A stretch of DNA of 64,000 nucleotides from positions 15,577 to 79,576 of the forward strand of contig DASUZB010000143.1 in assembly GCA_036377075.1 (NCBI GenBank), given 5' to 3'. Position numbers and translations under genes: made by a program. The notes beneath the pieces were generated by a model that saw only the letters and a list, made by a program, of their open reading frames with translations, was not told the origin of the DNA and did not search any database. Shown here in pieces: positions 8,434 to 50,915 of the stretch; position 1 is the stretch's first letter; each line of letters begins with the position of its first letter. This DNA is from Actinomycetes bacterium (lineage in GTDB: Bacteria > Actinomycetota > CALGFH01).

Positions 8434-8658
8434 GGGATCCCCCTCCGGTGTTGCCTGCCGATGGCTGCCGGTCCGTCCGGCCGTACGATCGCCAGCCGCA
8501 CGCGCGCGGTCACGGCAAGAGCCCGGCAACTACCCGGCAACTACCCGGCAATTTGGAAGGGTGGGGTTTGCCCGGCAGACCCGCGGGCCCCGATCCGGGC
8601 GGCACCGTGGCGCGATGGTTGCGGTTTGAACCAGTTCGGGTTCGGGCGATACTGGAGT

Positions 8659-17817: not shown

Positions 17818-18600
17818 ATGGCCGCAGCGGAGCTGGTCCACTACGAGCTGGCCGGCGGCGTGGCCACGGTCACGCTCGACTCGCCCTCGAACCGCAACGC
17901 GCTCTCCAGCGCGCTGCTCGGCCAGCTCCTCGACGCGCTGCAGCGGGCCGGCGCGGACGAGGCCGCGCGGGTGGTGGTCCTCACCGGCGCCGACCCGGCG
18001 TTCTGCTCCGGCGCCGACCTGGCCGAGCAAAGAGCCCGCAACCAGGCGGGTGCGCCGACGGGCTTCCCCCTGCCCGAGGTGCTGCGCTGGTTGTGGCGCG
18101 CGCCCAAGCCGGTGATCTGCCGGGTCAACGGCGCCGCCCGGGCTGGTGGCATGGGCCTGATCGGCGCGTGCGACCTCGCCGTCGCGCGCGAGCGTGCCAG
18201 CTTCGCCTTCTCCGAGGTGCGCGTCGGGGTGGTGCCCGCGGTCATCGCGCCCACCTGCCTGCCGAGGCTGGCGCCGCGCGCGGCCGCCGAGTACATGCTC
18301 ACCGGCGAGGTGTTCGACGCCCGCCGGGCGGTCGAGATCGGCCTGCTCAACCGGGCGGTGCCGGACGACGGGCTCGACGCCGAGGTGGCCCGCTACGTCG
18401 AGGCGCTGCAGCGTGGCGGCCCCGAGGCGCTCGGCCACACCAAGCGGGTGCTGCGGGAGCTGCCAGCGCTCGACTTCGACGTGGCCCTCGATCGCATGCA
18501 GGAGCTGTCCCGCGAGCGCTTCGCCTCGGCCGAGGCGCTCGAGGGCATGCGCGCCTTCGCCGAGAAGCGCCCCCCGAGGTGGGCGCCCTCCGATGGCTGA
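17818..18600 (+). CDS. enoyl-CoA hydratase/isomerase (crotonase family)
   Basis: VVVLTGADPAFCSGADL and NGAARAGGMGLIGACDLAVA, the crotonase oxyanion-hole motifs. Confidence 0.9.
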   Translation: MAAAELVHYELAGGVATVTLDSPSNRNALSSALLGQLLDALQRAGADEAARVVVLTGADPAFCSGADLAEQRARNQAGAPTGFPLPEVLRWLWRAPKPVICRVNGAARAGGMGLIGACDLAVARERASFAFSEVRVGVVPAVIAPTCLPRLAPRAAAEYMLTGEVFDARRAVEIGLLNRAVPDDGLDAEVARYVEALQRGGPEALGHTKRVLRELPALDFDVALDRMQELSRERFASAEALEGMRAFAEKRPPRWAPSDG

Positions 18601-20416
18601 GCCGCTACGGATCGCCAACTGCTCGGGCTTCTACGGCGACCGGCTCTCGGCCGCGCGGGAGATGGTCGAGGGTGGCCCGATCGACGTGCTCACCGGCGAC
18701 TACCTGGCCGAGCTGACCATGGCGATCCTGTGGAAGGCGCGCGCCAAGGACCCGGGCGCCGGCTACGCGACCAGCTTCCTCGCCCAGTGGGAGCAGGTCG
18801 CCGCGGCCGTCGCCGAGCGCGGCACCAAGGTGGTGGTCAACGCGGGCGGCCTCAACCCCGCCGGGCTGGCCGACGCGGTGCGCGCGGTCGCCAGCCGGCT
18901 CGGGCTGGCGCTCCGGGTCGCCCACGTCGACGGCGACGACCTGCTCGCCCGCCTCCCCGAGCTGCAGGCCGCTGGCGAGCCCCTCGCCCACCTGGACGAC
19001 GGCCGCCCGCTCGCCACGCAGCCGCGTCAGCCCGTCGCGGCGAACGCCTACCTCGGCTGCTTCGGCATCGCCGAGGCGCTCGGCGCCGGCGCCGACGTGG
19101 TCGTCTGCGGGCGGGTCACCGACGCCGCGCTCACCATGGGCCCGGCCGCCTGGCACCACGGCTGGGCGCGCGACGACCTCGACGCCCTCGCCGGCGCGCT
19201 GGTCGCCGGGCACGTGATCGAGTGCGGCGCGCAGGCGACCGGCGGCAACTACGCCTTCTTCGCCGAGGTGCCGGGCCTGGAGGCCCCCGGCTTCCCGATC
19301 GCCGAGGTGGCCGCCGACGGCGGCGCGGTGATCACCAAGCACGCCGCGCACGGCGGGCTGGTCAGCGTCGGCACGGTCACCGCGCAGCTGCTCTACGAGG
19401 TCGCCGGCCCGCGCTACGCCTCGCCCGACGTGACCGCCAGGCTCGACACGGTGCGGATCGAGCCGGACGGGCCGGACCGGGTCCGCATCGGCGGCGTGCG
19501 CGGCGAGCCGCCACCGCCGACCACCAAGGTCGCGGTCGTCCTGCCGGGCGGCTGGCGCAACAGCGTCGGCTTCCTGCTCACCGGCCTCGACGTCGAGGCC
19601 AAGGCGGCCCTGGTGGAGCGGGCCCTGTGGCGGCGGCTCGGCGGCCGGGAGGCGTTCGCCCGCAGCGACGTGCGCCTGCTCGGCGGCGACCGGCTGGACC
19701 CGGCCAGCGCCGAGCAGGCCACCTCCGAGCTGCGCGTCACCGTGATGGACCCCGACCCGGCCAAGGTCGGCCGCCGCTTCTCGGCGGCCTGCGTCGAGCT
19801 GGCCCTGGCGAACTACCCGGGCTTCACCCTCACCGCGCCGCCGGGCCGCGAGACCGCCTTCGCCGTCTACTGGCCGACGCTGGTGGCCAACGAGGTCGTG
19901 CCCCACCGGGTCGTCCACCACGACGGCAGCTGCAGCACCGTCGCGCCGGCCCCGGTGGTCGCCGCGGCCGACCTCGACGACCCGGCCCCGCCGCTCCCGG
20001 CGGCGGCCACCGCGCCGGAGGCGGCCGACCCGGCCACCGGCACCGGGCCGGCCCGGCGCCCGCCCGGCGGCCCGACCGTGCGGGCGCCGCTCGGCCGGCT
20101 CGCCGGGGCTCGCTCCGGCGACAAGGGCGGCAACGCCAACCTCGGGGTCTGGGTCCGCGACCGGGCCGCCTACGCCTGGTTGGACGGCTTCCTCACGGTG
20201 GAGCGGCTGCGCGCGCTGCTGCCCGAGGCGGCCGGCCTGGAGGTGCGGCGCTACGCGTTCGCGAACCTGCTCGCGGTCAACTTCGTGATCGTCGGCCTGC
20301 TCGGCGAGGGCGTCGCCTCCTCCACCCGCCCCGACCCGCAGGCCAAGGGCCTCGGCGAGCAGCTCCGCGCCCGCCTGGTCGACCTCCCGGCGGCCCTCCT
20401 GCCGCCAGGCGCCTGA
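18593..20416 (+). CDS. acyclic terpene utilisation AtuA-family protein (DUF1446 fused to its C-terminal small domain)
   Basis: The ATG overlaps the upstream stop (ATGGCTGA). LRIANCSGFYGDRLSAAREMVEGGPIDVLTGDYLAE. C-terminal GARSGDKGGNANLGVW. Confidence 0.8.
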   Translation: MAEPLRIANCSGFYGDRLSAAREMVEGGPIDVLTGDYLAELTMAILWKARAKDPGAGYATSFLAQWEQVAAAVAERGTKVVVNAGGLNPAGLADAVRAVASRLGLALRVAHVDGDDLLARLPELQAAGEPLAHLDDGRPLATQPRQPVAANAYLGCFGIAEALGAGADVVVCGRVTDAALTMGPAAWHHGWARDDLDALAGALVAGHVIECGAQATGGNYAFFAEVPGLEAPGFPIAEVAADGGAVITKHAAHGGLVSVGTVTAQLLYEVAGPRYASPDVTARLDTVRIEPDGPDRVRIGGVRGEPPPPTTKVAVVLPGGWRNSVGFLLTGLDVEAKAALVERALWRRLGGREAFARSDVRLLGGDRLDPASAEQATSELRVTVMDPDPAKVGRRFSAACVELALANYPGFTLTAPPGRETAFAVYWPTLVANEVVPHRVVHHDGSCSTVAPAPVVAAADLDDPAPPLPAAATAPEAADPATGTGPARRPPGGPTVRAPLGRLAGARSGDKGGNANLGVWVRDRAAYAWLDGFLTVERLRALLPEAAGLEVRRYAFANLLAVNFVIVGLLGEGVASSTRPDPQAKGLGEQLRARLVDLPAALLPPGA

Positions 20417-20528
20417 CCAAGGGCTACCAGGGCAGGCGGCCGCGCCCCTGGACTGGTTCAAGTAGGCTACGCGGGGAAAACCGGGTATCACCAATCGAGT
20501 GCCTTCGGACGTCCGGGAGGACGGAGCC

Positions 20529-21008
20529 ATGAGCCGCGGGACCGCGATCTTCCTCATCGTGCTCGGGGCGATCCTCGGGTTCGCCGTCACGGCAGAGATC
20601 AGCGGCATCGACATCCAGACCGTCGGCTTCATCCTGCTGGTCGTCGGCGTCGGCGGTCTGCTGTGGTCGCTGCTCCGGACCAGCGCGGACCAGGAGGTCG
20701 TGCTCCTCCCCGAGCCCGAACAGCCGCACCCGACGGTGGAGCAGGTCGACCCGGTGGTCCTGGCGGAGCTGGTCGGGCGGGTCCACGCGCTCGTCGGCCA
20801 GTCGAGGACCTTCCTCGAGGCCGAGGGCTACACCAACGAGCGCATCGACGAGCTGGCGGCCGACTTCGTCGCCGGCGACCACGGCCGCTCCAGGGACGAG
20901 TTCATCGCCTGGGCGGTGTCGCACGACCACCTCCCACGGCCGGCCGTGCAGGAAGAGGTGCCGACCGTGCGCCAGGAGCCGGTCACGCGCGAGGACGAGC
21001 CCGCGTAG
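20529..21008 (+). CDS. small membrane protein (two TM segments, acidic C-terminal half)
   Basis: GGGAGGA precedes the ATG at 20529. MSRGTAIFLIVLGAILGFAV...GFILLVVGVGGLLW. Confidence 0.6.
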   Translation: MSRGTAIFLIVLGAILGFAVTAEISGIDIQTVGFILLVVGVGGLLWSLLRTSADQEVVLLPEPEQPHPTVEQVDPVVLAELVGRVHALVGQSRTFLEAEGYTNERIDELAADFVAGDHGRSRDEFIAWAVSHDHLPRPAVQEEVPTVRQEPVTREDEPA

Positions 21009-21475: not shown

Positions 21476-21565
21476 GCACTGCCTCGCTTGGTGGGACGAT
21501 GCTGCCGCCGACGACTGTATTGGTTCCGCCGGGACGTCACCACCTGACCGCTGCGCACCCGACGA

Positions 21566-21593
21566 CCACCCGGGGCCCGCGGCCGCCGGGTGG
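21566..21593 (-). terminator. GC-rich hairpin downstream of the WXG100 gene
   Basis: CCACCCGG (21566-21573) pairs with CCGGGTGG (21586-21593), with a 12-nt loop. It lies 18 nt beyond the stop. No U-tract. Confidence 0.35.
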
Positions 21594-21610
21594 CCGCCGG
21601 TTGGGGGAAC

Positions 21611-21907
21611 TCAGCCCACCCCGAAGGACGCCGCGATGCCCTGCTCGGTCTGCGCGTAGCGGGCCGCTGCCTGTCCCGTCAGCTGCGCCATGCCGGTCAG
21701 CGCCTCGTTGAGCCCGCGCGCGTCCCGCTGCCACTGCTCCCAGAGGGCCTGGAAGCGCGCCTGGGCCATGCCGGCCCAGTCGGAGCCGAGCGGCGCGACG
21801 CTGTTGGTGAGCTGCGCCAGGATGCCGTCGACGTTGCCGGCGCCGGCCGTGAGCTGGGTCGCGACCTGCTGGAGCTGCTCCGGCGTGACCCTGATCCCGC
21901 TCGCCAT
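21611..21907 (-). CDS. WXG100-family type VII secretion substrate (EsxA/EsxB-like)
   Basis: 98 aa helical hairpin. W-x-G at SDWAGM. C-terminal YAQTE matches the YxxxD/E export motif. AAGGAGG RBS. Confidence 0.85.
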   Translation of the reverse strand: MASGIRVTPEQLQQVATQLTAGAGNVDGILAQLTNSVAPLGSDWAGMAQARFQALWEQWQRDARGLNEALTGMAQLTGQAAARYAQTEQGIAASFGVG

Positions 21908-21973
21908 GCCAGCCTCCTTGGTGGAACGCGGTGTTCGATCGTCTGGTAATACGGGACGGACGGCGCGGGAGGT

Positions 21974-23626
21974 TCATCCCGGCGTGCCTGGCCCTTCGGC
22001 CAGGCCGGCCAGCAGGCAGGCGGCCAGCTCGTGCATTGCGGTGCGGCAGCCGGCGCCCGCGCTCGGCCAGGCGAAGCTGCCGGCCGCGAGCTCGGCGGCC
22101 GCCCGCGGGGCGCTGGGGACCGTCACCAGGCCGCGCGCGTCCGGCAGGTAGCCGCCGAGGCGGTCCAGGTCGAGGCTGGCCCGGGGCGCGTCCATCGCGG
22201 TGGCCTGCCGTGGCGGGCCGGCACCGGCCGGCATGCGGTTGACCACCACGGTGACGGGCAGCCCGGCGCGGATCAGCGGCAGCCCGGCCTCGACCGCCAG
22301 GCTGGCGCCGACCGGGTCGGCATCGGTGACCAGCAGGAGCTGGTCGCAGGCCTGGACGGCGGCCTGGCCGGCAGGCGCGTGCAGCCCCGCCCCGCAGTCG
22401 ACCAGCACCAGCGGGTAGAGCGAGCGCAGCCGCTGGAGCGACAGCCGCCAGGCGCGCTCGTCGAGCGGCGCCCGCCGTGCCGGGGCGGGCAGCACCGCCA
22501 GGCCGTGGGCCGCGCGGCCCAGCCGCGCGTCCAGCCCTTCCCGGGTCGGCATCGCCCGCGCCAGCCGCGCCACCAGGTCGTCGGCCAGCCAGGCGGGGGG
22601 CCGCTCCGGGACGGGCGCGGCTCGTCCCAGCCGCGCGAGCAGGTCTTCGGCGCCCGCCTGCCGGTCGCCGGCGGAGCGCGCGGCAGTCCCCAGTGCGCCG
22701 GCCTCCCAGCCGATTCCGAGGACGCGCGCCAGCGAGCCTGGGTGGTCGCTGCCGCCGGCGTCGACGGCCAGCACCCGCTCCCGCCGGTGCAGCGCCAGCA
22801 GCGTGCCGAGCAGCCCGGTGACGGTGGTCGCGCCGACGCCGTCCCTGGCCGCGGCGACCGCGACCGTCACCGCCCGGCGGGGCAGCGGCGCCCCGACGGC
22901 CGCGTCGAGCTGCTCCAGGTAGGAGCTGGAGCGCCATGCCCGCCGCACCGACCGCAGCCGTCCGAGTCCCGCCCGGCCAGGCGGGCCGCCGGCCCGCGCC
23001 CCTGCCGCCGCCTCCTGCCATCTGGCCTGGCCCGGTCCCGCGTCCCTGCCTGGCGCCGGTTCGTGCCAGGTGGCGCCCGCCGTTCCCGGGTCGGGCGGGG
23101 CCTCGACCGGGGCGAAGGCGGCGGCGCCCATGGGCGCGGCGCCGCGCCGGCCGGAGGCGGCCTCGGTCGCCGCCAGCAGCGCCATCACCAGGCCGCCCTT
23201 GAAGCGCGGGGGGCGTGGCCGGGGAGCGGTCGTGGGCTCGCCGGCCTCGGTCGGGGCGGCGAGCAGCGCCTGGGCGGCCAAGGTGGCGCGTTCGGCCAGC
23301 GGGTGGCGTGGCGGCAGCGCGGCGGCGGTGCGCTCGACGGGGCTGCGGCCGTCCCTCGGCGGTGGCGGAGGCGGCGGCGCCGCCGGGGCGGGGCGGGGCG
23401 TGCCGAGGTGGAGCAGGGCGCCGTTGAGGATCCCGGCGGCAGCGAGCGACGAACCGGCCGGGAGCGGATGCCCACCGACCGGCGTGAGCGTCAGGCCGTC
23501 GGGGGCGGTGTCGTCGCCGAGCAGCCGTGCCAGCACCGGCAGCAGCTCGGCCACTGGCGCGTCGGCCGGCAGCGACAGGTCGCGCCGCCCACGCGGCCCG
23601 GCGACCGTGACCAGCAGGGTGCGCAC
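21974..23626 (-). CDS. YukD/EsaB-like ubiquitin-fold domain, Pro-rich linker and MinD/ParA-like domain with a degenerate Walker A
   Basis: N-terminus MRTLLVTVAGPRGRRDLSLPADAPVAELLPVLARLLG...GILNGALLHL is YukD-like. C-terminus VTVAVAAARDGVGATTVTGLLGT...VLAVDAGG...YPLVLVDCGAG is SIMIBI ParA/MinD-like. GTG start 3 nt after the eccC stop. Confidence 0.7.
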   Translation of the reverse strand: MRTLLVTVAGPRGRRDLSLPADAPVAELLPVLARLLGDDTAPDGLTLTPVGGHPLPAGSSLAAAGILNGALLHLGTPRPAPAAPPPPPPPRDGRSPVERTAAALPPRHPLAERATLAAQALLAAPTEAGEPTTAPRPRPPRFKGGLVMALLAATEAASGRRGAAPMGAAAFAPVEAPPDPGTAGATWHEPAPGRDAGPGQARWQEAAAGARAGGPPGRAGLGRLRSVRRAWRSSSYLEQLDAAVGAPLPRRAVTVAVAAARDGVGATTVTGLLGTLLALHRRERVLAVDAGGSDHPGSLARVLGIGWEAGALGTAARSAGDRQAGAEDLLARLGRAAPVPERPPAWLADDLVARLARAMPTREGLDARLGRAAHGLAVLPAPARRAPLDERAWRLSLQRLRSLYPLVLVDCGAGLHAPAGQAAVQACDQLLLVTDADPVGASLAVEAGLPLIRAGLPVTVVVNRMPAGAGPPRQATAMDAPRASLDLDRLGGYLPDARGLVTVPSAPRAAAELAAGSFAWPSAGAGCRTAMHELAACLLAGLAEGPGTPG

Positions 23627-23629
23627 CGC

Positions 23630-26600
23630 TCAGCCCTCCACCGCGCGGGCGGGCGCGGCCGGTTCCCGCCGGGGTCTGGTGGGCGCCTGGGCGGCCTGGA
23701 CGAGCACGGCGGCGCGGCGCCGGACCAGCTGACCGCGGCCGGGCGGGAGCGGCTCGGCCTTGCGCCCGCCGAGCAGGGGACCCTCGTCAGGGTCGCCGCT
23801 CATCAGCAGGCCGGGCGGCCCCAGCTCGCGGAGGCGCTGCAGCAGCGGCTCGAAGGCGCTGCGCGCGAGCCCGCCGACGCGCCGCGCGAGGACCAGGTGG
23901 AAGCCGACGTCACGGCCCTGCGCGAGGAACTCGGCGAGGCCGGCGAGCGGGTTGCCGACCGCGCCGGCGACCAGGTCGTAGTCGTCGACCAGCAGCACCA
24001 GCTCCGGGCCCGACCAGGCGCGGGCCTGGCGCAGCGCGCTCACCGACAGGTCGGCGGGCCGCCAGCGGCCCGCCAGCTCCGCGGCGAGCCGCGCGGCCAG
24101 CTCGGCGGCCGTCTCCGCGGTGCAGGCGTAGCCGAGCAGGTGCGCCTCGTCGACCGCGTCGAGCAACTGGCGCCGGTAGTCGACGACCGCGACCTGCAGC
24201 CGCTGCGGCGGCCACGCCGCCACCAGGCGCCGCGCCAGCCCGCCGAGCAGGGTGGTCTTGCCGCAGCGGTCGTCGCCGAGCACCAGGAAGTGCGGGTCGT
24301 CGCCGAACAGGTCGACCCGTGCGGGGCGCAGGCCGTGCTCCTCCAGGCCGATGGCGGCGCCCCGCTCCGCGTCGTCGCCGGAGTCGGGGAGGTCCTCGGG
24401 GCGCACCTCGCGCGGCAGGGTGCGCACCGGCGGCGCGGCGGGCGCCCCGCGCCAGCGCGCCGCCACGTCGGCGACCAGGCGCTCCACGCCGAGGGCGAGG
24501 CCGCCGACGTCGGCCAGCCCGTCGGCGCGCGGCAGCGCCGCCTGGAACACGGCGCCGGCGCGGTCCAGGCCCCGGCCCGGGACGCCGGCAGGCAGGGTGG
24601 CGGCCGCATGCCGGTCGATCTCCGACTCCACCGGGTCGTTGAGGCGCAGCTCCAGGCGGCCGCCGAGGTTGTCCCGCAGCGCCAGCCGCAGGTCGGTCCA
24701 GCGGTTGGCGGCGATCACCAGGTGGATGCCGTAGTGCAGCCCGGATGCCGCCAGCTCCAGCAGGTCGTCGGTCAGCTCGGCGAACTCGGCGGCGAACAGC
24801 GCCCAGTTGTCGACCAGCACCAGCACCTCGCCGTGCCCGCCGGGCAGCGCGCCGTCCCGCCGGGCGCGGTGGTGGGCGGCCATGCCGTCGAACCCGTGGC
24901 GCCGGAACGCCCCGGCCCGCTCGGCGGCGATCGCGCGCAGCTCGCGCACGAGGCGGTGCACCTGCTCCCGGTCGCTGCGGCCGCAGACCACGCCGACGTG
25001 GGGCAGCCCGGCGAGGGCGTGCAGCCGCCCGCCGCCGAGGTCGACCGCGTACACCTGGGCGTCGGCGGGGTCGTGGGTCAGGGCGAGCGCGGCGACCAGC
25101 GCGGCCAGCAGCGTCGACTTGCCCGACCGTGGCGCGCCGACCAGGGCGAGGTGGCCGCCGCCGCCGTTCAGGTCGAGCACGAACGGGACCTGCGCCTGCT
25201 CGCGGGGACGGTCGGCGAGGCCGAGCGGGACCGTGAGCCAGCCGGGCCCGCCCGGCCGCCGCGGCTCCGCGCCCAGGTCGAGCACCGCGTCCAGCGGCAG
25301 GGTTTCGGGCAGTGGCGCCAGCCACACCGGTCGCGCGCGCCGCCCCGGCGGCGTGGAGGCGCACAGCCCGGCGACCGCCACCTGCATCTCGGTGCGCACC
25401 GCCGCGCCGCCGGTATCGGGAATCACCGTGCCGGCGCCCGCAGCCTTGCCATCCGCGGGCGCCGGCGCGGCACCTTGGCCGGCCTCGGTGGCTGGGCCGG
25501 CCGTGGCTCCGGGCTCTGCCCTGGCGGCGCCGCCGAGGACGGCCAGCTCGCTGCCGAGGCCGCCGATGCCGAAGGCGTGGACCACACTGGTGGGCTCGGC
25601 CGCCGAACTGGTCACCCGCCACGGGCGGGTGACCAGCGCGGCCTTGAAGCGCTGCTTGGCGCCGTCGACCCGTAGCCAGCCGAGCCCCGGCAGGGGCGGC
25701 AGCTCGAACGCCTCCCGGCCCCCGAGGGCGACCACCGACTCCTCCGCGCTGAAGGTGCGCAGGCAGATGCGGTAGCGCAGGTGGCTCTCGAGGCCGCGGA
25801 TGCGGCCCTCGTCGAGCCGCTGCGTCGCCAGCAGGAGGTGGACCCCGAGGCTGCGGCCGGTGCGGCCGATGGAGACGAACAGGTCGAGGAAGTCGGGCCG
25901 TGCGGCCAGCAGCTCGCCGAACTCGTCGACGATCACCAGCAGGGACGGCAGCGGCGCCAGCCCGGCGTGCGGGTTGGCCGCCCGGTGGGCCTGGTAGTCG
26001 CGAGCCCGGTCGAAGTTGCCCGCCGCCGCCAGCAGGCGCTGGCGCCGCTCGAGCTCCCCGAACAGCGCCTCGTGCATGCGGCCGACCAGGGTCGGCTCGC
26101 GCTCCAGGTTGGTGATCACGCCGGCGACGTGCGGCAGGGCGGCCACCTCGGCGAAGGTCGCCCCGCCCTTGTAGTCGACCAGGACGAGCGCCAGCTCCTC
26201 CGGTGCGTGCCCGAGGGCGAGCCCGGTCACCAGGGTGCGCAGCAGCTCGCTCTTGCCCGATCCGGTGGCCCCGACCACCAGCCCGTGCGGTCCCATGCCG
26301 TCCTCGGCCGCCTCCTTGAGGTCGAGCGCGACCGGGCGCCCGTCGTCGCCGACCCCGATGGGGGTGCGCAGCAGCCCCGCGCCGCGGCGGCCCGGGTCCG
26401 CCGGCGGCCCGGCGCCGTCGAGGCCGAGGAGGCCGAGCAGGCCCTTGGAGTCGACCGTGGCCGAGCCTCCCCCGGGCGTGCGCAGCACCAGCGGGGCCAT
26501 CGCCCTGGCGATCGCCTCGCACAGCTCCACCGGGGCCGTGTCCGGCACCAGGCCGTGTTCGTGGCGGCCGTCGGGCGTCAGCTCGGCGTAGTCGAGCCAG

Positions 26601-27799
26601 CCGTCCGCGCCCAGCTCCAGCACCGCGCCGGCCCGCGCCGGCACCTCGTCGGGCCGCTCCACCAACGTGACGACCAGCACGCCCAGCTCGGCCGCGACCG
26701 TCAGGAGCCGGTCGAGGACGGGCAGGCGGCCCACCGGGTCCATGGGCCGGTAGCCGTCCACGATCACCACGACCGGCTGCAGGCCGACCGCCGCCGCGGC
26801 GCCGACCGGTGCGACCTCGGCGCGGCTCCGCTCCAGGTGCTCGAGCCGTGGCTGCACCAGCTGGGTGAGCAGCACGTCCAGGTCGTCCGGGTCGACCGTC
26901 AGGGCGACCGTCCCGCGGCCGTCCGCCGCGACCGCCCCGGCCTCGCGCACGTGCGGCAGCCACTTCATCCAGCTCCACGCCGGCTCGGCGGACGGCTCGA
27001 ACCAGGCGACCAGGCGCAGGTCGTCCGGGGCGTGCCAGATGGTGAGCTGGCAGACGAGCGCGCGCGCCAGCCCCCTGGCCGTCTCCCGGTCGCCCACCAC
27101 CGCCAGCGAGCCGAGCTCGCCGGCGGCGACCGTCAGCGGCATGCCCGCCAGGCGACGGTGGCCGTCGACCACCTCCCTGGCGGCGGCCTCGAGCTCGGTA
27201 ACGTACTCGACCAGCGGGTTGCTGCCGAGGTCGAGGCGGACCGGCACGGCCAGCGGGACGGTGCCGAGGCCGACGCGGGCGTGGAGGAAGTCCGGGTCGG
27301 TGCGGCGCCGCTCCCAGAGGTGGCGGCGCCCGGCGACCACCGGCCACAACGCGGCGACGGCCGGGTGGACGCGGGCTGCCGCCGCCCGCTGTGCGGCCGC
27401 CACCGCGTCGAGCCGGCGCCGCTGCTCGTCCAGGTGGGCGTGGTAGCGCTCGGTGTCGCGGCGGCGCTTGCGCCGCGACCCGCGCCGCTGCCCGACGTAC
27501 ATGGCGACCGCGAGGACGACGCTCAGCACCACGATCCCGCCGGCGACGGCGAGGAACAGCGGGTTGCGGTAGACGAAGGCGAAGCTCGCCATCCCGAGGC
27601 TGCCGACGAGGGGGAGCAGGACCTGCAGGAAGGCGCGCGGCGACGGGGGGTCGAGGGTCGGCGGCGCGGCCACGAGCACCGGCTCGCCGGCGACCGGCTC
27701 CGGGAACGCCCGCGCGGGGCGGTGGAACAGCACCGACCCTGGCGGGCCGTCGCCCGGGCCGGTCCGTTCGCCGGACCGGTCGGGTACCGTGGTCGTCAC
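23630..27799 (-). CDS. eccC: EccC-type FtsK/SpoIIIE type VII secretion ATPase (3 P-loop domains)
   Basis: Two N-terminal TM segments and no FHA domains. Walker A motifs GATGSGKS, GAPRSGKS and GDDRCGKT. Confidence 0.9.
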   Translation of the reverse strand: MTTTVPDRSGERTGPGDGPPGSVLFHRPARAFPEPVAGEPVLVAAPPTLDPPSPRAFLQVLLPLVGSLGMASFAFVYRNPLFLAVAGGIVVLSVVLAVAMYVGQRRGSRRKRRRDTERYHAHLDEQRRRLDAVAAAQRAAAARVHPAVAALWPVVAGRRHLWERRRTDPDFLHARVGLGTVPLAVPVRLDLGSNPLVEYVTELEAAAREVVDGHRRLAGMPLTVAAGELGSLAVVGDRETARGLARALVCQLTIWHAPDDLRLVAWFEPSAEPAWSWMKWLPHVREAGAVAADGRGTVALTVDPDDLDVLLTQLVQPRLEHLERSRAEVAPVGAAAAVGLQPVVVIVDGYRPMDPVGRLPVLDRLLTVAAELGVLVVTLVERPDEVPARAGAVLELGADGWLDYAELTPDGRHEHGLVPDTAPVELCEAIARAMAPLVLRTPGGGSATVDSKGLLGLLGLDGAGPPADPGRRGAGLLRTPIGVGDDGRPVALDLKEAAEDGMGPHGLVVGATGSGKSELLRTLVTGLALGHAPEELALVLVDYKGGATFAEVAALPHVAGVITNLEREPTLVGRMHEALFGELERRQRLLAAAGNFDRARDYQAHRAANPHAGLAPLPSLLVIVDEFGELLAARPDFLDLFVSIGRTGRSLGVHLLLATQRLDEGRIRGLESHLRYRICLRTFSAEESVVALGGREAFELPPLPGLGWLRVDGAKQRFKAALVTRPWRVTSSAAEPTSVVHAFGIGGLGSELAVLGGAARAEPGATAGPATEAGQGAAPAPADGKAAGAGTVIPDTGGAAVRTEMQVAVAGLCASTPPGRRARPVWLAPLPETLPLDAVLDLGAEPRRPGGPGWLTVPLGLADRPREQAQVPFVLDLNGGGGHLALVGAPRSGKSTLLAALVAALALTHDPADAQVYAVDLGGGRLHALAGLPHVGVVCGRSDREQVHRLVRELRAIAAERAGAFRRHGFDGMAAHHRARRDGALPGGHGEVLVLVDNWALFAAEFAELTDDLLELAASGLHYGIHLVIAANRWTDLRLALRDNLGGRLELRLNDPVESEIDRHAAATLPAGVPGRGLDRAGAVFQAALPRADGLADVGGLALGVERLVADVAARWRGAPAAPPVRTLPREVRPEDLPDSGDDAERGAAIGLEEHGLRPARVDLFGDDPHFLVLGDDRCGKTTLLGGLARRLVAAWPPQRLQVAVVDYRRQLLDAVDEAHLLGYACTAETAAELAARLAAELAGRWRPADLSVSALRQARAWSGPELVLLVDDYDLVAGAVGNPLAGLAEFLAQGRDVGFHLVLARRVGGLARSAFEPLLQRLRELGPPGLLMSGDPDEGPLLGGRKAEPLPPGRGQLVRRRAAVLVQAAQAPTRPRREPAAPARAVEG

Positions 27800-27825
27800 C
27801 GTCCACCTCCTCGTCCTACGGCAGG

Positions 27826-29568
27826 TCAGCGCGCCCGGCTCAGCACCGCCACCGCCGCGCGGGAGAACTCCGGGGTGAAGTCGCCGTTGCCGGCGCCGGC
27901 GCGGGCGATGCGGAGCAGGTCGGCGATCTCGAGCCGGCGGCGCTCGCCGCGCAGTGAGGCCAGGTTGGCCAGCCGGCCCCGGTAGGTGCGCCCGCGCGGG
28001 CCGACCCTGCTCGGTGCCGCGTCGATCACCGCGATCAGGTCGCTCACGGTGACCGGGTCGCTGCCGTTGGACACCACCAGGTCGACCGCCTGGCCCTGGC
28101 GCAGGGTGGCGCCGGCCGGCGGGTTGGTCTCCAGCACCTGGCCCTTGCCGACCTGGGGGTTGCGTACCAGCCGCAGCTTGCCGACGGTGGCGCCGGCCGC
28201 CCGCAGCCGCTGCACGGCCTCGGCCCGTGCCGCGCCGGCCACCGGCGGCACCTGGAGCGGCGCCGGCGTGGTCGGCGCCGGGGCGGTCGTCGCGCCGGTG
28301 CTGGCCGTCGGCAGGGTGGCGTCCGCGGCCCTGCCGGCGCCGACGTCGAAGACCAGCCCGGGCGCGACCAGCCCGATGGACGCCGCCACCACGATCGCCA
28401 GGCCCACGGCGATGGTCGCCAGCGCCAGCCGGTTCCGCCGCCGCGGCGGCTCGGCGAACCTGGTCAGGGCGCGCACCCGCTCCTCGTGCGGCGGCAGCCC
28501 GTCCAGCCCCGTCGGCGGCATGCCCAGCGGCGGCACCACCATGCCCGGCAAGGTCGGGATCGTGCCGGCCTCGTCCCCTCGCGCCGGCGCCGAATCGGGC
28601 TCGTCCTCGCCGGCGACCGCCCTGGCCGGTCCGCGCGGGCCGACCGCCGCCTCCGCGACGGCGGTGCCCACCGGCACGACGGGTTCACCGGCGGCCGCGT
28701 GTTCCGGCGGGCCGGTGGCGACCGGCTCGTCCACCCCCACCGGCACGGCCGGCACCACCGGCTGCGTGGCCGGGTCGGGGAGCTGGGCGAGGGCGTGGCG
28801 CAGCTCGGCGGCGGTCTGCGGGCGCTCGGCGGGGTGCTTGGCGAGCGCCCACATGACCGGCTCGTCCAGCCAGGCGGGCAGCTCCGGGCGGACCGTGCTC
28901 GGAGGGCGCGGGGACTCCTCGAGGTGGCGGCGCATCACCACGAACGGGGTCGGGCCGTCGAACGGCGGCTCGCCGGTGAGCAGCTCGAACAGGCAGCACC
29001 CGAGCGCGTAGAGGTCGGAGCGGTCGTCGGCGCGGCCGCTCTGGACCTGCTCGGGAGACAGGTAGGCGGCCGCCCGGTGACCCTGGGCCACCAGCGCGGC
29101 AAGGCCGAAGTCGGCGACCTGCACGAGGCCGTCCGGCCGCAGCCTGACCTTGCCCGGGGTGAGGCCGCCGTGGACCAGCCCTTGGGCGTGCGCCGCGCCG
29201 AGCGCCGCGCAGACCTGCGCGGCGACCTCGACCGCCCTTGCCGCCGGCGCGGGCCCCGCCGTGCGCTGCAGTTCGCGCACGGTGCGGCCCTCGACCAGCT
29301 CCATCACCACGAACGGCACGCCCTGGTCCTCGCCGAGGCCGAGCACGGCGACGACGTTCGGATGGTCGAGGCGCGCCGCCTCCCGGGCCGCGCGCAGGAA
29401 GCCGGCGCGCGCGCCCGCGTCCTCCGCGAGCTGCGCGTGCGCCACCCGCAGCGCCACGCGACCGGCGTTGTGCGTATCGGCGGCCTCGAACACCTGCCCG
29501 AGCGCGCTCGCCCCCAGCGGCCGGCCGAGCTGGTACCGGCCCGCGAGCAGCCTGCCTCCAGCCTCCAT
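27826..29568 (-). CDS. membrane Ser/Thr-kinase-fold pseudokinase with an extracellular PASTA domain and an unassigned C-terminal domain
   Basis: Hanks fold, but VALR replaces VAIK and HGGLTPGK replaces HRDLKPxN, while DFG, SPE and the later subdomains are retained. One TM segment (LALATIAVGLAIVVAASIGLV). PASTA-like VAGAARAEAVQRLRAAG...VDLVVSNG. Confidence 0.8.
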   Translation of the reverse strand: MEAGGRLLAGRYQLGRPLGASALGQVFEAADTHNAGRVALRVAHAQLAEDAGARAGFLRAAREAARLDHPNVVAVLGLGEDQGVPFVVMELVEGRTVRELQRTAGPAPAARAVEVAAQVCAALGAAHAQGLVHGGLTPGKVRLRPDGLVQVADFGLAALVAQGHRAAAYLSPEQVQSGRADDRSDLYALGCCLFELLTGEPPFDGPTPFVVMRRHLEESPRPPSTVRPELPAWLDEPVMWALAKHPAERPQTAAELRHALAQLPDPATQPVVPAVPVGVDEPVATGPPEHAAAGEPVVPVGTAVAEAAVGPRGPARAVAGEDEPDSAPARGDEAGTIPTLPGMVVPPLGMPPTGLDGLPPHEERVRALTRFAEPPRRRNRLALATIAVGLAIVVAASIGLVAPGLVFDVGAGRAADATLPTASTGATTAPAPTTPAPLQVPPVAGAARAEAVQRLRAAGATVGKLRLVRNPQVGKGQVLETNPPAGATLRQGQAVDLVVSNGSDPVTVSDLIAVIDAAPSRVGPRGRTYRGRLANLASLRGERRRLEIADLLRIARAGAGNGDFTPEFSRAAVAVLSRAR

Positions 29569-29659
29569 GACCCGTTCCCCCTGGCATGGATCATCCCTTC
29601 CGCGGCATTGCATACGGGACGGCCACGCCCCAGGGTTCAGGCGCGCAGGAATTCCCTCG

Positions 29660-30460
29660 TCACTTGCCGGGGCCGGGGCGCAGCACGATCGGGCCTTCCC
29701 GCGCCGGGTTGCCGTTGTCCGGCTCCTCGGTCACCCCGACCTTCGCGTAGATGCTCGCCGGTGCGGCGGTGAACGCGTGCAGCCGCACCTTGCCGCTGAC
29801 CGGCACGGTGAAGGTGCCGAGCGAGACGCGCTGGGGGTGGTCGGGGGTGTCGGCGGCGCCCACCGCCCAGAGCTCGTACAGCTTGCCCGCCTTGGGCGGC
29901 CGGAGGCCCTCGATGCGCACGTCGAAGCTGCGCCCACCGCTGGTCTTCGTCACCAGCACGCGCCCCTTCGCCGTGCCCCCGTCCGCCGCGACCAGGGCCA
30001 GCTCGGTGGTCGCCGGCCGGTTCAGCAGCAGCGTCGCCGGGATGGACAGCAGCACCACCAGCGCTGCCGCCACGGCCGTGGCCAGCAGGGGCCGCCGCCC
30101 GAGGGCGGCGAACCGGCCGCGTGCCTGGCGGCGGCGTTCCAGCTCGGTGGGGCGCGCCCCGGCCGGCGTCACCAGCTCGGGCGCCGCCCGCAGCCCTGGC
30201 GAGGGCAGCTCCCCTGCCTCGGCCGCTTCCTCGGCGGCCTCGCGCACCGCCGCCAGCGTGCGCCCGCGTAGCGTCTCGGGCAGCTGCACCGGCGGCGCGG
30301 CCCGCGCCAGCAGCTCGGGCAGCCCGCGCAGCTCCTCCAGCTCGCGGCGGCAGTCGTCGCACTCGGCCAGGTGCGCCTCGAACGCGACCGTCTCGTCGTC
30401 GTCGAGCTTGCCGAGCGCGTAGCCGGCCACCTCGACGTGAGGCGCGGCATTGTCAGGCAT
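29660..30460 (-). CDS. anti-sigma factor (zf-HC2 N-terminus, RskA-like extracytoplasmic domain)
   Basis: HLAECDDCRRELEEL, one TM segment, C-terminal YELWAV...TEEP. The start overlaps the sigma gene stop by 8 nt. Confidence 0.8.
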   Translation of the reverse strand: MPDNAAPHVEVAGYALGKLDDDETVAFEAHLAECDDCRRELEELRGLPELLARAAPPVQLPETLRGRTLAAVREAAEEAAEAGELPSPGLRAAPELVTPAGARPTELERRRQARGRFAALGRRPLLATAVAAALVVLLSIPATLLLNRPATTELALVAADGGTAKGRVLVTKTSGGRSFDVRIEGLRPPKAGKLYELWAVGAADTPDHPQRVSLGTFTVPVSGKVRLHAFTAAPASIYAKVGVTEEPDNGNPAREGPIVLRPGPGK

Positions 30461-31016
30461 GCACCTCACGCTCCTCCAAGGCTTGCTTGAGCGCCCGCAT
30501 GCCGTAGAAGGCACGCGTCTTCACCGTTCCCAACGGTACCCCTAACCGCTCTGCTGCCTGCACCTGGGTCAGGTCCTGCAGGTGCAACAGCTCGAGCACC
30601 TCCCGCTGGCCGTCGGGCAGCGAGTCGAGCGCCTCCCGGACGCTCAGCCCCACCAGGATCCGGTCGACCGAGTCGCCGGTCTGCTCGCCGGCGGTGCGCT
30701 CGTCCTCGACCGCCTCGGCGAACGGGCGCGAGGAGGGGCGGCGCCACAGGTCCACCGCGATGCGGCGGGCGATGGCGAACGCGAAGCTGCTCACCGAGCC
30801 GCGCTCCGGGTCGTACCTCCCGGCCGTGCGCCACAACCGTACGAACGTCTCCTGCACCAATTCCTCCGCCAAACCGGTGTCGCCGAGAAGCCGAACGCCG
30901 AGCCCGTAGAGGCGACCGGCGTAGCGGTCGTAGAGCTCCTCGAGGGGGGAACCGAGGTCTCCCTCGGCGACTCGGGCGAGCAGCGTAGCGTCTTCGTCGT
31001 GCTTGTCATCGCTCAT
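30453..31016 (-). CDS. ECF (group IV) sigma-70 factor
   Basis: Region 2 (LVQETFVRLWR...FAFAIARRIAVDLWRR) and region 4 (REVLELLHLQDLTQVQAAERLGVPLGTVKTR). Confidence 0.9.
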   Translation of the reverse strand: MSDDKHDEDATLLARVAEGDLGSPLEELYDRYAGRLYGLGVRLLGDTGLAEELVQETFVRLWRTAGRYDPERGSVSSFAFAIARRIAVDLWRRPSSRPFAEAVEDERTAGEQTGDSVDRILVGLSVREALDSLPDGQREVLELLHLQDLTQVQAAERLGVPLGTVKTRAFYGMRALKQALEEREVHA

Positions 31017-32650: not shown

Positions 32651-34237
32651 TCAGCAGGAGCGGCCGTCCTTGGAGGTGGCGACGATCGGGTTGGTGGGCG
32701 GGGTGGCGTCGCTGAGGGGCGGCGCGCTCGCCGAGAGGCGGCCGAAGTTCTGGGTGGCCCATGCCCTGCCGCCGGCGCAGACCACGCCGATGCCGATGGT
32801 GTCGAAGCCCGGCTGGAGCAGGTTGCGCCGGTGCCCCTCCGAGCGCATCCAGCCGACGTGGAGCTCGTAGCCGTCGTCGTCGTAGCCGCTCACCCAGGCG
32901 ATGTTCTCGCCCAGCGCGGAGAACTGCCCGATCCCCGGCCGGCTGCGCGCCGCGTCCAGGTCGCGGTGGACGAAGCGGCCGCTACCGGCCATCTGGCTCG
33001 ACCAGTCGGTCGCCAGCCTGGCCAGGTCGTCGCTCCATTCCAGGGGAGCGAGGCCGCGCCTGGCGCGCTCGGCGTTGACGCGGCGGAACAGGTCCTGCGC
33101 GATCGCTTCCGCGGTGGTCGTCGGGCGCTCGGGTGCGTCCCGCACCGAGACGGGCTGCTCGCGGGCCGGCTGCGGCAGCGGCCCGCCGCCGGAGGGCGCC
33201 GCCGGCTTGGAGGCCGACGCCGGCGGGGTCGCCCGGGCGAACAGCACCGTGACCCACAGGCAGTTGCCGCTCACGGTGCCCAGGCCCAGGCCGTTGAGGG
33301 TGGGGGAGAGGATCAGCTGCCGGTAGGTGGCCGAGGCGATCATGCGCTGGTACGCCTGGTCGATGTTGCTGGCGCAGTCGACGTACTGGCTGACCGAGGT
33401 GGCCGGTCGGGCGCTGGCCGCGATGCCAGGGTCGGGGTGGATGCGCTTCTGGCGGGCCATCTCGGCGGCGTGCGCCGTGGCCACCGCGTTGAGGCGGCGC
33501 AGCACCCGCATGCCGGGCAGGCCGTTGCGCGCCCGCTCCCGGTTGACGAGGGTCACCAGGCGGTCGAGGTCGCCCGGCTGCACCGCGGCGGCCGCCGGAC
33601 GCTTGACCGCGTCCTGGGCGGTCTTGCGCGGCAGGACGCGGCCGGGGCCGGCCGTGAGGAGCAGCAGCAGGCTGACGATCAGCGGGATGGCGATGAGCAT
33701 CGCCGTGCGGCCGTTGCCCCGCAGGCGGGCGACGGGCGCGCCGAGCCGGGCGTAGGCCGGCGTGGCCGCCAGGCGCTCGGCGCGGGAGGGGGGCGCCAGC
33801 TCCAGCGCCTTGCTCTTGATCGGCTGCACCCCCCAGAGCTCGCTCAGGGGGGGAGCGGCGCCCGCCGAAGGGTCGTCCGCTTGGAGGGAGCCACTGGCCG
33901 GCTGGACGCCCCATGCCTGGCTCGGTGACGGGTCGGCGGTCCATGGCTGGCTGGGCGGTGGCTCCTCGCTCCACGGCTGGCTGGGGGACGGGTCGACGCC
34001 CCACGGCCTGCTGGGGGCGTTGCCGCCATCCCATGGCCCGGTCGGGAAGAGCTCGTCGTCCTGGTGGCCGTTGTGGGGCTGGCCGTTGCGGGCCGTGCCC
34101 TGGAAGCGCTCGCCGTTCCAGGGGAACGGCTGCCCTGCCTCGGGGTCCTGCGCGTCCGCTGCCGGGTCGGGCGTCCAGCCGGTAGGCCGGCGCCGCGGCT
34201 CGCTCCAGCCGCCGCTGTTCGGGTGCGGGCCTCGCAC
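32651..34237 (-). CDS. membrane-anchored protein with two CAP/SCP (PR-1-like) domains and a Pro/Trp-rich N-terminus
   Basis: Two copies of the RERARNGLP.../HRRNLL-type CAP blocks (LVNRERARNGLPGMR and RVNAERARRGLAPLEW...GHRRNLLQPGFD). One TM segment. GTG start. Confidence 0.8.
   Translation of the reverse strand: MRGPHPNSGGWSEPRRRPTGWTPDPAADAQDPEAGQPFPWNGERFQGTARNGQPHNGHQDDELFPTGPWDGGNAPSRPWGVDPSPSQPWSEEPPPSQPWTADPSPSQAWGVQPASGSLQADDPSAGAAPPLSELWGVQPIKSKALELAPPSRAERLAATPAYARLGAPVARLRGNGRTAMLIAIPLIVSLLLLLTAGPGRVLPRKTAQDAVKRPAAAAVQPGDLDRLVTLVNRERARNGLPGMRVLRRLNAVATAHAAEMARQKRIHPDPGIAASARPATSVSQYVDCASNIDQAYQRMIASATYRQLILSPTLNGLGLGTVSGNCLWVTVLFARATPPASASKPAAPSGGGPLPQPAREQPVSVRDAPERPTTTAEAIAQDLFRRVNAERARRGLAPLEWSDDLARLATDWSSQMAGSGRFVHRDLDAARSRPGIGQFSALGENIAWVSGYDDDGYELHVGWMRSEGHRRNLLQPGFDTIGIGVVCAGGRAWATQNFGRLSASAPPLSDATPPTNPIVATSKDGRSC
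33908..34042 (-). repeat. tandem coding repeat (about 11-aa units ending PSQPW / PSRPW / PSQAW)
   Basis: TGPWDGGNAPSRPWGVDPSPSQPWSEEPPPSQPWTADPSPSQAWG within the CAP protein N-terminus. Confidence 0.6.
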
Positions 34238-45890: not shown

Positions 45891-46949
45891 TATCAACCCG
45901 CGACTGATCAGTGAGATTCCCGATGCGTCCGGCCGGCGCGCCGCGCGGAGGGGACGGGACCAGGACGGCGAAACGGAGGAGCGTCCGCCGGCGCCTGCTC
46001 CGGTAAATCTCGGTGGAATTCTCTCTGGATAGCTTCTGCCATGTCCCGGCGGTTCCGGCGCGCAACCGGAGGGGAATATCGTCGGCCCCCTCGGCGCCCG
46101 GTGGGGCGGCGGCCGGCGGGGCGAGGGGCGGCGCTGGCGCCGGCCCCCCCGGGACGGGCTAGTCCTTCCGACCCCGGCGGACGTTCGGCGCCTCGGGCCG
46201 CGGGCGCTCGCGGTCCGCGGCAGCCGGCGCCGGGGTCCGCGGCGCCGGGAGGCGTATGCAGCGGTCAGGGGCACGCCCGGGACCCCAGGTCCCCCGGTGG
46301 ACACCCGAGGGACCCACGGGCCGGGGACCGCCGGCCGTGGCCGCCGCCGGGACGTTCGCCCGATCCGTCCCACGCGCTGACGTAGGTGGTTCTACCGATC
46401 GCTTGCCGGGCTTGTGAGCCGCGGGATGAGGCCCGCCGGGCGCGCGCCGCCCCCGCCCCCCCGGGGCGCGGTCATCCTCGTGCCGACCTGTGGTCGTGCC
46501 GGCGGGCAAGGAACCCGAGCAATTCGAGCACCTGAGGCGATCAAGTCGATTGCCCTATTGGTCGACCTCACGAGGGTTGATTGCCGACCCGGCATCGCCA
46601 ATAGTTACGGCCATGTATGGATGCGGTCCTCGGCAGAATACGCAGCCGTGGTTCCTCGCCACGCACCCCCCGGCGCCGCACGGTACCCTCCACCGGCGTC
46701 CCTGCGTAGCGTGGAGCGGTGGCACGAGCCTCGCCGGCGACCGGCCAGCAGCGGCCGAGCGAAATTCGATCGCCCGATCGCAGCACCGCCCGAGAGCACC
46801 CGGTCAGTAGCTTTTCTCGCCTCCCAAATCCCCATCCCCCGACGCGAAACGTAGGCCAGCGCCCCGGCACCGCGGCATCCCGGCAGTCAGCGCGGTCCGT
46901 CTCCCACCACCAGCTCCCCGGGCCCGTTGGTCAGGACGAAGGGTAGGAA

Positions 46950-49492: not shown

Positions 49493-49493
49493 G

Positions 49494-49916
49494 ATGGCCG
49501 AACTCAGCAGGGAAGCGGAGAACCTGAACTGGCTTGTCACGAACTTCGTGCGGAAGGTCCCCGGCGTCATCCACACGATCGTGGTCTCGGCCGACGGGCT
49601 CCCCGTGGCGGTCTCGGAGGACCTCGACCGCACCACCGCCGACCAGCTCGCGGCGGTGGCGTCCGGTCTGTCCAGCCTGACCCAGGGCGCGGCCAGGTAC
49701 TTCGGCGGCGGCAACGTCAACCAGACGGTCGTCGAGATGGAGAAGGGCTTTCTGTTCGTGATGCTGATCAGCGACGGCTCCTGCCTGGCCGTGCTGGCGT
49801 CCCCCAACGCCGACATCGGCCTGATCGGCTACGAGATGGCCCTGCTGGTCGCTCGCGCCGGCGACGTCCTCACCCCAGCCCTACGGGCCGAGCTGCAGGC
49901 CGCCCTGCCACGATGA
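49494..49916 (+). CDS. cvnB: Roadblock/LC7-domain protein (CvnB)
   Basis: [37 protein letters not shown]...GYEMALLV. Confidence 0.9.
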
Positions 49917-50912: not shown

Positions 50913-50915
50913 GCC

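Follow-up and report, generated by a model that had tools for sequence, protein, structure and literature searches.

A 64,000-nt stretch of contig DASUZB010000143.1 (hereafter the window; G+C content 70-81%), from an uncultured soil actinobacterium, carries at positions 21611-31016 six minus-strand genes that we read as a self-contained type VII secretion system (T7SS) cassette of a reduced actinobacterial kind, regulated by an extracytoplasmic function (ECF) sigma factor. We put the probability of this reading at roughly 70%. The evidence comes from a predicted ECF-type promoter motif in front of both regulatory and secretion genes, from an EccC-type ATPase that is followed by a soluble fusion of a ubiquitin-like (Ubl) and a ParA-like domain, and from the recurrence of both sets of genes in related loci, which are referred to below as L001 to L028. 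The closest relatives of the window are uncultured "Actinomycetota bacterium" metagenome-assembled genomes (MAGs). The genes and promoter motifs of the block are as follows (TM, transmembrane).

30453..31016, minus strand: ECF sigma factor, 187 amino acids (aa), with Sigma70_r2 and r4 (Pfam) and TIGR02937 at 87 bits, above cut-off
29660..30460, minus strand: single-pass anti-sigma factor, 266 aa, with PF13490 zf-HC2, one TM segment, PF10099 RskA_C and NF052375
27826..29568, minus strand: membrane pseudokinase, 580 aa, with Pkinase, TM segment, PASTA and a C-terminal four-helix domain
23630..27799, minus strand: EccC-type T7SS ATPase, 1389 aa, with two TM segments, a degenerate DUF ATPase domain and three P-loop domains
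21974..23626, minus strand: soluble fusion protein, 550 aa, with Ubl at residues 1-78, a Pro-rich disordered linker and a MinD/ParA (EspI-like) domain
21611..21907, minus strand: WXG100 protein, 98 aa, with PF06013 at 80 bits and TIGR03930 at 80 bits
31018..31044, minus strand: promoter motif P1, directly upstream of the sigma gene
29613..29639, minus strand: promoter motif P2, upstream of the pseudokinase-EccC-fusion operon
21950..21976, minus strand: promoter motif P3, upstream of the WXG100 gene

The original prediction for this DNA had described six tightly packed, co-directional minus-strand genes, and its positions and every domain that it named were found again with Pfam and NCBIfam: profile models support WXG100, EccC, YukD, Pkinase and PASTA, with ParA/MinD weak on the single sequence. 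Its spacings also agree with ours, namely an 8-nt overlap of the sigma and anti-sigma genes (if the latter starts at its likely ATG 30460), 26 nt between the pseudokinase and EccC genes and 3 nt between the EccC and fusion genes; the gap from the fusion to the WXG100 gene is 66 nt.

Predicted ECF promoters and the regulatory trio

Comparison of the intergenic regions yielded the motif TGAACC-N17-CGTA(T/C), a classic ECF-type -35/-10 pair. Three exact matches to TGAACC-N17-CGTA were found in the window, all on the minus strand, where 0.01 were expected and none of 100 shuffles reached three; allowing spacers of 16-18 nt added no site. One-mismatch matches at 44902 and 50910 were not counted, as they lie within chance expectation (0.8). 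The leaders downstream of P2 and P3 measure 40-45 nt and hold good Shine-Dalgarno sequences: P2 is followed by about 45 nt with GGGGGA and then ATG 29568, while the TGA of P3 doubles as the stop codon of the fusion gene, with AAGGAGG and an ATG downstream. P2 overlaps the upstream pseudokinase ATG at 29613, and ATG 29568 is the most likely start; gene callers also used the resulting 580-aa form.

The motif recurs in relatives together with the ECF sigma, anti-sigma and pseudokinase genes (hereafter the trio). P1 is conserved before the sigma gene in L001-3, L006, L024-27 and L028, P2 before the pseudokinase gene in every trio-bearing locus and P3 before the WXG100 gene in L001-3 and L006, so that these last four loci share all three sites with the window. 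Besides the sigma and pseudokinase genes, motif sites precede the opening gene of the T7SS operon as well as a divergent T7SS_signal effector gene in L024/25, an effector gene heading the T7SS operon in L026/27 and both divergent T7SS promoters in L028. A scan of the first 27 loci (L001-L027) gave no match in the 19 that are without the trio. Taken as predicted promoters, these sites are the signature of an autoregulated ECF regulon comprising sigma factor, pseudokinase and T7SS, with P1 predicting autoregulation of the sigma gene. What had been proposed as possible ECF control has thus gained a promoter motif conserved in the window and in relatives. As the trio and the same motif on T7SS operons or effector genes recur beside three other T7SS layouts, we regard predicted ECF control of the locus as strongly supported.

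The sigma factor contains Sigma70 regions 2 and 4 only, and its gene, which has a predicted ECF-type promoter upstream, overlaps that of an anti-sigma factor with a zf-HC2 domain and a TM segment, as befits an ECF pair. The nearest subfamilies are SigK-like (PRK09645 and PRK09646 (SigK), about 130 bits each, both below their cut-offs). Comparison with PRK09646, whose cut-off is 226 bits, did not identify the protein as a SigK orthologue; the anti-sigma factor nonetheless has an RskA_C domain. The TM segment of the latter lies near residues 138-166 of the long open reading frame (ORF) and places the zf-HC2 anti-sigma domain in the cytoplasm and RskA_C outside it. The closest experimentally established parallel is the mycobacterial SigM/RsmA pair, which directly drives ESX-4, WXG100 and effector promoters through a GGAACCG -35 element (PMC13491425). 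Both cases combine an ECF sigma factor with a membrane anti-sigma factor and a similar -35 element (TGAACC here), whereas regulation is predicted in the present case, the sigma factor scores nearer SigK-like than SigM models (130 versus 77 bits), and its genes are physically linked to the T7SS and accompanied by a co-regulated PASTA pseudokinase.

Alignment of this third member of the trio with PknB of Mycobacterium tuberculosis (E 2e-55) revealed VALR where PknB has VAIK, HGGLTPGK where it has HRDVKPAN, and a degraded Gly-rich loop, so that the catalytic-loop Lys is replaced by Thr and the Asn by Lys, while DFG is retained. With these catalytic residues lost and NF033483 at 310 bits against a cut-off of 450, the protein falls outside the Hanks-type PASTA kinases. 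The assignment as a pseudokinase extends to the whole orthologue family, in which the HRD Asp is a Gly (HGG or HRG) in all eleven aligned members; the family is distinct, with E<1e-90 followed by a sharp drop to generic PknB-like kinases. From its sequence, the protein is a PASTA protein derived from PknB/Stk1, and it gave no Pfam match to the EssB/YukC family.

The ectodomain was modelled with a model confidence score (pLDDT) of 92 and consists of one PASTA domain, which matches those of PknB and PrkC, and a four-helix domain of about 75 aa (window 27826-28060, pLDDT >90). The helical domain, with a motif of roughly DLIAVIDA..GPRG..FRGRL..L..ERR..E.ADLL.IARAG.GNGDFTP.FS, is tandemly duplicated in some orthologues (P0167, P0170, P0173, P0178) and found no PDB fold match at E<0.7. 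Judged from the model, it is a candidate sensor of the signal. PASTA domains bind ligands derived from peptidoglycan. The pseudokinase may serve as a co-sensor for the anti-sigma factor, as an EssB-like structural subunit, or as both: its fixed position next to the anti-sigma gene in all layouts favours a signalling role, and its position at the head of the eccC operon here, together with the analogy to T7SSb, favours a structural one.

The predicted secretion core and its Ubl-ParA fusion

The ATPase is of the EccC type, as had been proposed, with two N-terminal TM segments, no FHA domain according to Pfam and three intact Walker A motifs (residues 510, 888 and 1175); a Walker B DE is found in D1. 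Scores of 693 bits for TIGR03924 (cut-off 509) and 721 bits for TIGR03925 (cut-off 347) indicate the EccCa plus EccCb architecture of T7SSa, whereas TIGR03928, the model of the FHA-bearing EssC of T7SSb, reached 472 bits and remained below its cut-off of 778. The best PDB match is EccC of Thermomonospora curvata (789 bits, compared with 194 bits for YukB).

Directly after eccC, where L022, L024 and L026 encode EccD with its Ubl domain and TM segments, the window encodes a Ubl-ParA protein without TM segments. The fusion occupies the position of EccD. At its N-terminus YukD (PF08817) scores 61 bits, the NCBIfam EccD model TIGR03920 matches residues 6-140, and the best fold match of the Ubl domain is the PDB entry of EccD1 (32% identity); by these comparisons the domain is of the EccD type. 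While the ParA/MinD signal is weak on the fusion sequence taken singly, the family profile hits PDB MinD at 1e-8, and the ParA domain of the predicted model matches MinD/FleN/FlhG folds (TMt 0.6-0.7). A single-sequence scan of genome contigs with the fusion found nothing, and relatives were retrieved by an alignment-based scan. In an alignment with 14 homologues, the Walker A motif reads AARDGVGATT in the window clade, both lysines being lost, and SPKGGVGKTT in distant members. When 1.84 billion representative proteins were searched exhaustively with a profile, 171 hits of the fusion family were obtained at E<=1e-30; among the best 150, 83 are Ubl-ParA fusions, with Walker A (KGGxGK[ST]) intact in 53 and degenerate in 30. 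The ParA domain is, on this evidence, a family member by descent that probably is no ATPase in the window lineage.

Family ParA domains are 31-44% identical to a "MinD/ParA family protein" encoded between mycP and eccD on a Mycolicibacterium ESX plasmid, a protein with the position and architecture of EspI. EspI is cited in PMC11302016 as a P-loop protein that down-regulates ESX-1 secretion at low ATP. EspI (Rv3876) of ESX-1 shares with the fusion a Pro-rich disordered region followed by a C-terminal MinD/ParA P-loop domain, encoded inside a T7SS locus; unlike the fusion, it is without an N-terminal Ubl and keeps the ATP-binding Lys, whereas both Walker A lysines of the fusion are lost. Further ParA homologues turned up in other settings. 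Candidatus Dormiibacterota MAGs (L009, L010, L011, L015, L016) encode ParA-only homologues about 38% identical to the ParA domain of the fusion, with neither EccC nor WXG100 within the 10 kb fetched, and a ParA-domain match on the Nonomuraea chromosome (L020) was dropped because no EccC or WXG100 is encoded nearby. In L012 (8141-10849; also L028, 17151-17891), a single-pass SAF-domain protein resembling CpaB/FlgA is encoded, in L012 beside the Ubl-ParA gene. By analogy, such neighbours recall CpaB and CpaE/TadZ of Tad pilus loci, which hints at a localisation role for the ParA domain.

The small protein at the end of the block bears the hallmarks of the WXG100 family, a WAG at residue 44 and a C-terminal YAQTE (YxxxD/E) at residue 84, and matches EsxA/EsxB-like PDB entries. 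It is presumed from its sequence to be the secreted core substrate. No second WXG100 gene was found in the window, so that the EsxA/EsxB pair of T7SSa is not present there.

Synteny in relatives only partly supported the prediction of one compact block: EccC/fusion/WXG100 and sigma/anti-sigma/pseudokinase each recur as modules, but the six genes are not one conserved unit. The order EccC, Ubl-ParA, WXG100 is found in L004/5/7, L017 and L021, with EccCs 55-63% identical to that of the window and with no kinase or sigma gene near them; L021 additionally encodes a 506-aa protein with a WXG100/T7SS_signal N-terminus. Extra genes accompany this module in Acidimicrobiaceae MAGs (L008, L018), a Streptosporangiaceae MAG (L012) and unclassified Actinomycetota MAGs (L013, L014), namely a second YukD-domain protein without TM segments and, in L012, the SAF-domain protein; the gene order of L013/L014 is the same as that of L012 and was established by tblastn only. 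In a simple neighbour-joining (NJ) tree without support values, window-type EccCs group with L021, L017 and L004; next to branch off is the EccD-type L022, followed further out by a second ParA-type group (L008, L018, L012), and at a greater distance stand the plasmid ESX and the remaining EccD-type loci. A monophyly of ParA-type EccCs was considered and dropped, as the 471-aa partner of the L022 EccC is an EccD-like membrane protein and not a degenerate ParA fusion.

The trio, in turn, adjoins a T7SS in all four distinct contexts retrieved through pseudokinase orthologues. Window-type trio loci are L001-3, L006 and one JGI contig. In L024-27 it is convergent with an operon encoding a 95-aa protein, two WXG100 proteins, an 81-aa protein, EccC and a true EccD, with T7SS_signal effectors and a SUKH immunity protein as neighbours. 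L028 (8681-17891) has a WXG100-led operon with a 417-aa WXG/T7SS_signal protein and an EspG-like protein on one strand and EccC, a stand-alone 91-aa YukD and the SAF-domain protein on the divergent strand. EccB, EccE and MycP were not found within 10 kb in any trio locus, EccD-type ones included. The WXG100/T7SS_signal-type effector genes beside L021 and L024-28 support a predicted function in secretion. Two of these loci, L024 (11841-18483) and L026 (4785-13779), represent a reduced EccD-type T7SS with T7SS_signal effectors and a DUF6883 or SUKH immunity gene alongside; their 81-aa protein has a weak similarity, below cut-off (PF05108, 15.9 bits), to the N-terminal TM region of EccB. A different arrangement was seen in Streptomyces sp. 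NRRL F-5123 (L023, 1-14032), where an EccC 43% identical to that of the window directly follows the genes of an 8048-aa, a 258-aa and a YbaB-like protein, with no YukD, EccD or WXG100 adjacent to it.

Relation to described systems and weighing of rival readings

The original prediction had also called the layout neither a textbook ESX nor a textbook T7SSb, which holds: the locus lacks the defining gene sets of T7SSa, T7SSb and T7SSc and matches none of the descriptions of T7SSc-j in PMC11217815, where ParA, MinD, EspI, PASTA and sigma are not mentioned. With T7SSa/ESX, and ESX-4-like systems in particular, it shares an FHA-less two-TM EccC, a WXG100 protein with YxxxD/E, an EccD-kind Ubl and an EspI-like ParA domain. 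It differs in having no EccB, EccD membrane domain, EccE or MycP nearby and one WXG100 protein instead of an EsxA/EsxB pair, and whereas the Ubl of EccD sits on an 11-TM domain, here it is fused to a soluble ParA-like domain.

The T7SSb core (EssC/YukB, EssB/YukC, EsaB/YukD; PMC12637312, PMC9600267) offers the same cast, including a single-pass pseudokinase with an extracellular domain, a YukD/EsaB-like Ubl (here a fusion domain) and a single EsxA-like WXG100, and YukD bridges YukB and the pseudokinase YukC in that system (PMC12637312). The pseudokinase of the window, in contrast, has no YukC-family match, its EccC is without the FHA domains on which EssB docks, its Ubl is EccD-like and fused to ParA, and no EssA- or EsaA/YueB-like ORF is present in the block. 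The suggestion of a hybrid with firmicute T7SSb was therefore not borne out, as the Ubl is EccD-type, the pseudokinase derives from PknB/PASTA proteins and the ParA domain is homologous to EspI-like ESX proteins. The resemblance to T7SSb is one of analogy, not ancestry, with every component assigned by its sequence to actinobacterial families.

T7SSc has been reported only in Bacillota, with a core of TscA (WXG100), TscB (YukD), TscC (FHA-less ATPase), TscD (active TM kinase), TscE (vWA), TscF (PPM phosphatase) and TscG (EspG-like) (Garrett, Higginson & Palmer 2024, PMC11217815). An FHA-less ATPase grouping with EccC, a single WXG100, a YukD-like Ubl and a single-pass Ser/Thr-kinase fold are common to both. 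However, the T7SSc kinase is active and the one in the window dead, neither the block nor its flanks contain a vWA, PPM or EspG-like gene, and T7SSc has neither the ParA domain nor the ECF pair seen here. Analogues of TscA, TscB and TscC only were found out of the seven-gene set.

For the cassette as we read it, the following course of events can be proposed. The RskA-type membrane anti-sigma factor would hold the sigma factor inactive until an envelope signal releases it; this signal would most likely be peptidoglycan-related, since the co-conserved pseudokinase has a PASTA ectodomain. Mycobacterial RskA and RsmA are released by regulated proteolysis, and release would probably proceed likewise here. 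The free sigma factor would then transcribe from the three TGAACC-N17-CGTA promoters its own operon, the pseudokinase-EccC-(Ubl-ParA) operon and the WXG100 gene. EccC would act as membrane motor and translocon, with the EccD-type Ubl presumably docking on it as the Ubl of EccD does in T7SSa and YukD in T7SSb, while the EspI-like ParA domain, ATP-dead in this lineage, may serve in the cytoplasm as a scaffold for dimerisation or positioning. The WXG100 protein, which probably forms a homodimer and bears a YxxxE signal, would be exported and probably enable the export of effectors encoded elsewhere.

Several points weigh against this reading. P1 ends 1 nt before the sigma ATG, too close for the standard distance from an ECF -10 element to the transcription start, with a junction that reads CGTAcATG or CGTAgATG in five lineages and a conserved sigma ATG. 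The promoter motif is a sequence prediction, and regulation and secretion are predicted here from the genes. L001-3 and L006 share their flanks with the window and thus provide no independent synteny evidence. The ParA-type EccCs are not cleanly monophyletic, the EccD-type L022 nesting between two ParA-type groups. The full-length fusion model has a pLDDT of 54, with only the Ubl at about 80, and we used domain-level fold matches only. The absence of eccB, eccD, eccE and mycP covers the 64-kb window, and these genes could be encoded elsewhere in the genome. Finally, the window yielded no effector gene: the effectors and small T7SS proteins encoded at related loci, used as tblastn queries, had no counterpart there.

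It could be argued that the locus is only a fragment of an ordinary ESX-4-like T7SSa with eccB, eccD, eccE and mycP elsewhere in the genome, of which 64 kb are visible. EccC passes the T7SSa EccCa/EccCb cut-offs, its best structural relative is an actinobacterial EccC, and related organisms (L022, L024-27) pair a similar EccC with EccD. We nevertheless consider a fragment unlikely. The prediction that no canonical ESX membrane components are adjacent was borne out within the window: a Pfam scan of about 36 ORFs found no EccB, EccD membrane domain, EccE or MycP, and tblastn with EccA, EccB, EccD, EccE and MycP of a mycobacterial ESX plasmid (L019) gave no match there. Canonical ESX genes are usually clustered, as they are in L019, yet the ParA-type loci examined, which come from several lineages, have none of these genes within +/-10 kb. 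The EccD-type relatives are likewise without EccB, EccE and MycP nearby, and the slot after eccC, which is EccD's in relatives, is filled by the TM-less Ubl-ParA protein. Going further than the reduced cassette, one may propose an undescribed T7SS subtype, in which the EccB/D/E/MycP scaffold is truly absent and replaced by an EssB-like PASTA pseudokinase and the Ubl-ParA fusion, forming a convergent EssC-EssB-YukD core from actinobacterial parts with a dedicated ECF sigma factor that fires on cell-wall damage. This bolder proposal is less likely than not and put forward only tentatively.

Two other explanations appear less probable still. PASTA proteins and RskA-type ECF pairs are typical of envelope stress, and several ParA-type T7SS loci lack the trio entirely, so that the trio might be a module for cell-wall stress in general, next to a T7SS by coincidence, its motif matches being likewise coincidental or part of a much wider regulon that extends beyond the window and out of view. 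Such a module is rather improbable given that the trio is next to a T7SS in four of four distinct contexts, that chance would yield only about 0.01 motif matches per 64 kb, and that, in varying orientations, the motifs stand precisely before T7SS operons and before the genes of WXG100 proteins and T7SS_signal effectors. Very improbable, in our view, is the idea that EccC and the ParA protein handle DNA, in conjugation or segregation, as an FtsK-like pump and a partition ATPase, and do not secrete protein. EccC does belong to the FtsK/SpoIIIE superfamily, ParA/MinD proteins are common in DNA partition, and ParA homologues occur often on actinobacterial plasmids. Yet this three-ATPase EccC lies above T7SS-specific cut-offs with only 39 bits for the FtsK model, its neighbours always include a WXG100 gene, related loci have WXG/T7SS_signal effectors nearby, the Ubl is EccD-type, the window lineage has a dead Walker A in its ParA domain, and the flanks hold no relaxase, replication or centromere-binding gene. 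A reduced, ECF-regulated T7SS cassette is thus the reading that we retain.

Flanking genes and implications

Both flanks are unrelated to T7SS, as had been predicted, with bcp, DUF6458, enoyl-CoA hydratase, acyl-CoA dehydrogenase and L,D-transpeptidase genes on one side and DUF2203, MarR, DoxX, CAP-domain and MFS transporter genes on the other. A CAP/SCP-domain gene lies within a few kb of eccC in the window (32651-34237), in L004 (3334-4476) and in L001 (1-103); its presence in the window clade and in the distant L004 clade may be coincidence or mark a recurrent neighbour. Further away, positions 46947-53396 encode two NIT-domain sensors, one with HAMP and HATPase_c, flanking an ATP_bind_1 GTPase-like gene (49992-50912), which looks like a conservon-type (cvn) signalling cluster. 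A 1341-aa protein (4504-8529) combines Golvesin_C with a weak GDSL lipase-like C-terminus and is otherwise mostly without family match. Around 18600-20470, long ORFs on both strands (18605-20632, minus; 18730-20532, plus) have no Pfam match, and the syntenic gene of L001 is AtuA-like (PF07287). Scans for sigma-70 promoter and intrinsic-terminator consensus sequences found nothing in this 75% GC DNA. The 18-bp GC-rich hairpin after the WXG100 stop codon (about 21560-21600, minus strand), before the co-directional bcp, has -47 kcal/mol, no better than shuffles (z -1.3).

T7SS classes currently run from T7SSa to T7SSj, of which T7SSa and T7SSd are the only two placed in Actinomycetota (PMC11217815). 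What is new here is, on the one hand, a reduced actinobacterial layout with a soluble Ubl-ParA protein in place of the membrane protein EccD, which connects EspI, an enigmatic accessory protein of ESX-1, with a conserved partner of EccC and suggests that what stays constant is the Ubl as docking element for EccC, irrespective of the part joined to it. On the other hand, a trio of ECF sigma factor, RskA-type anti-sigma factor and dead PASTA pseudokinase travels with at least four T7SS layouts and, with the promoter code predicted for T7SS and effector genes, extends the SigM-ESX-4 paradigm beyond mycobacteria. The pseudokinase also contributes a small, confidently modelled extracellular helical domain without structural relative. 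By scanning for the motif, T7SS effectors of uncultured Actinomycetota could be predicted and, if the proposed undescribed subtype were true, the locus would constitute a cassette to "sense attack, then secrete".

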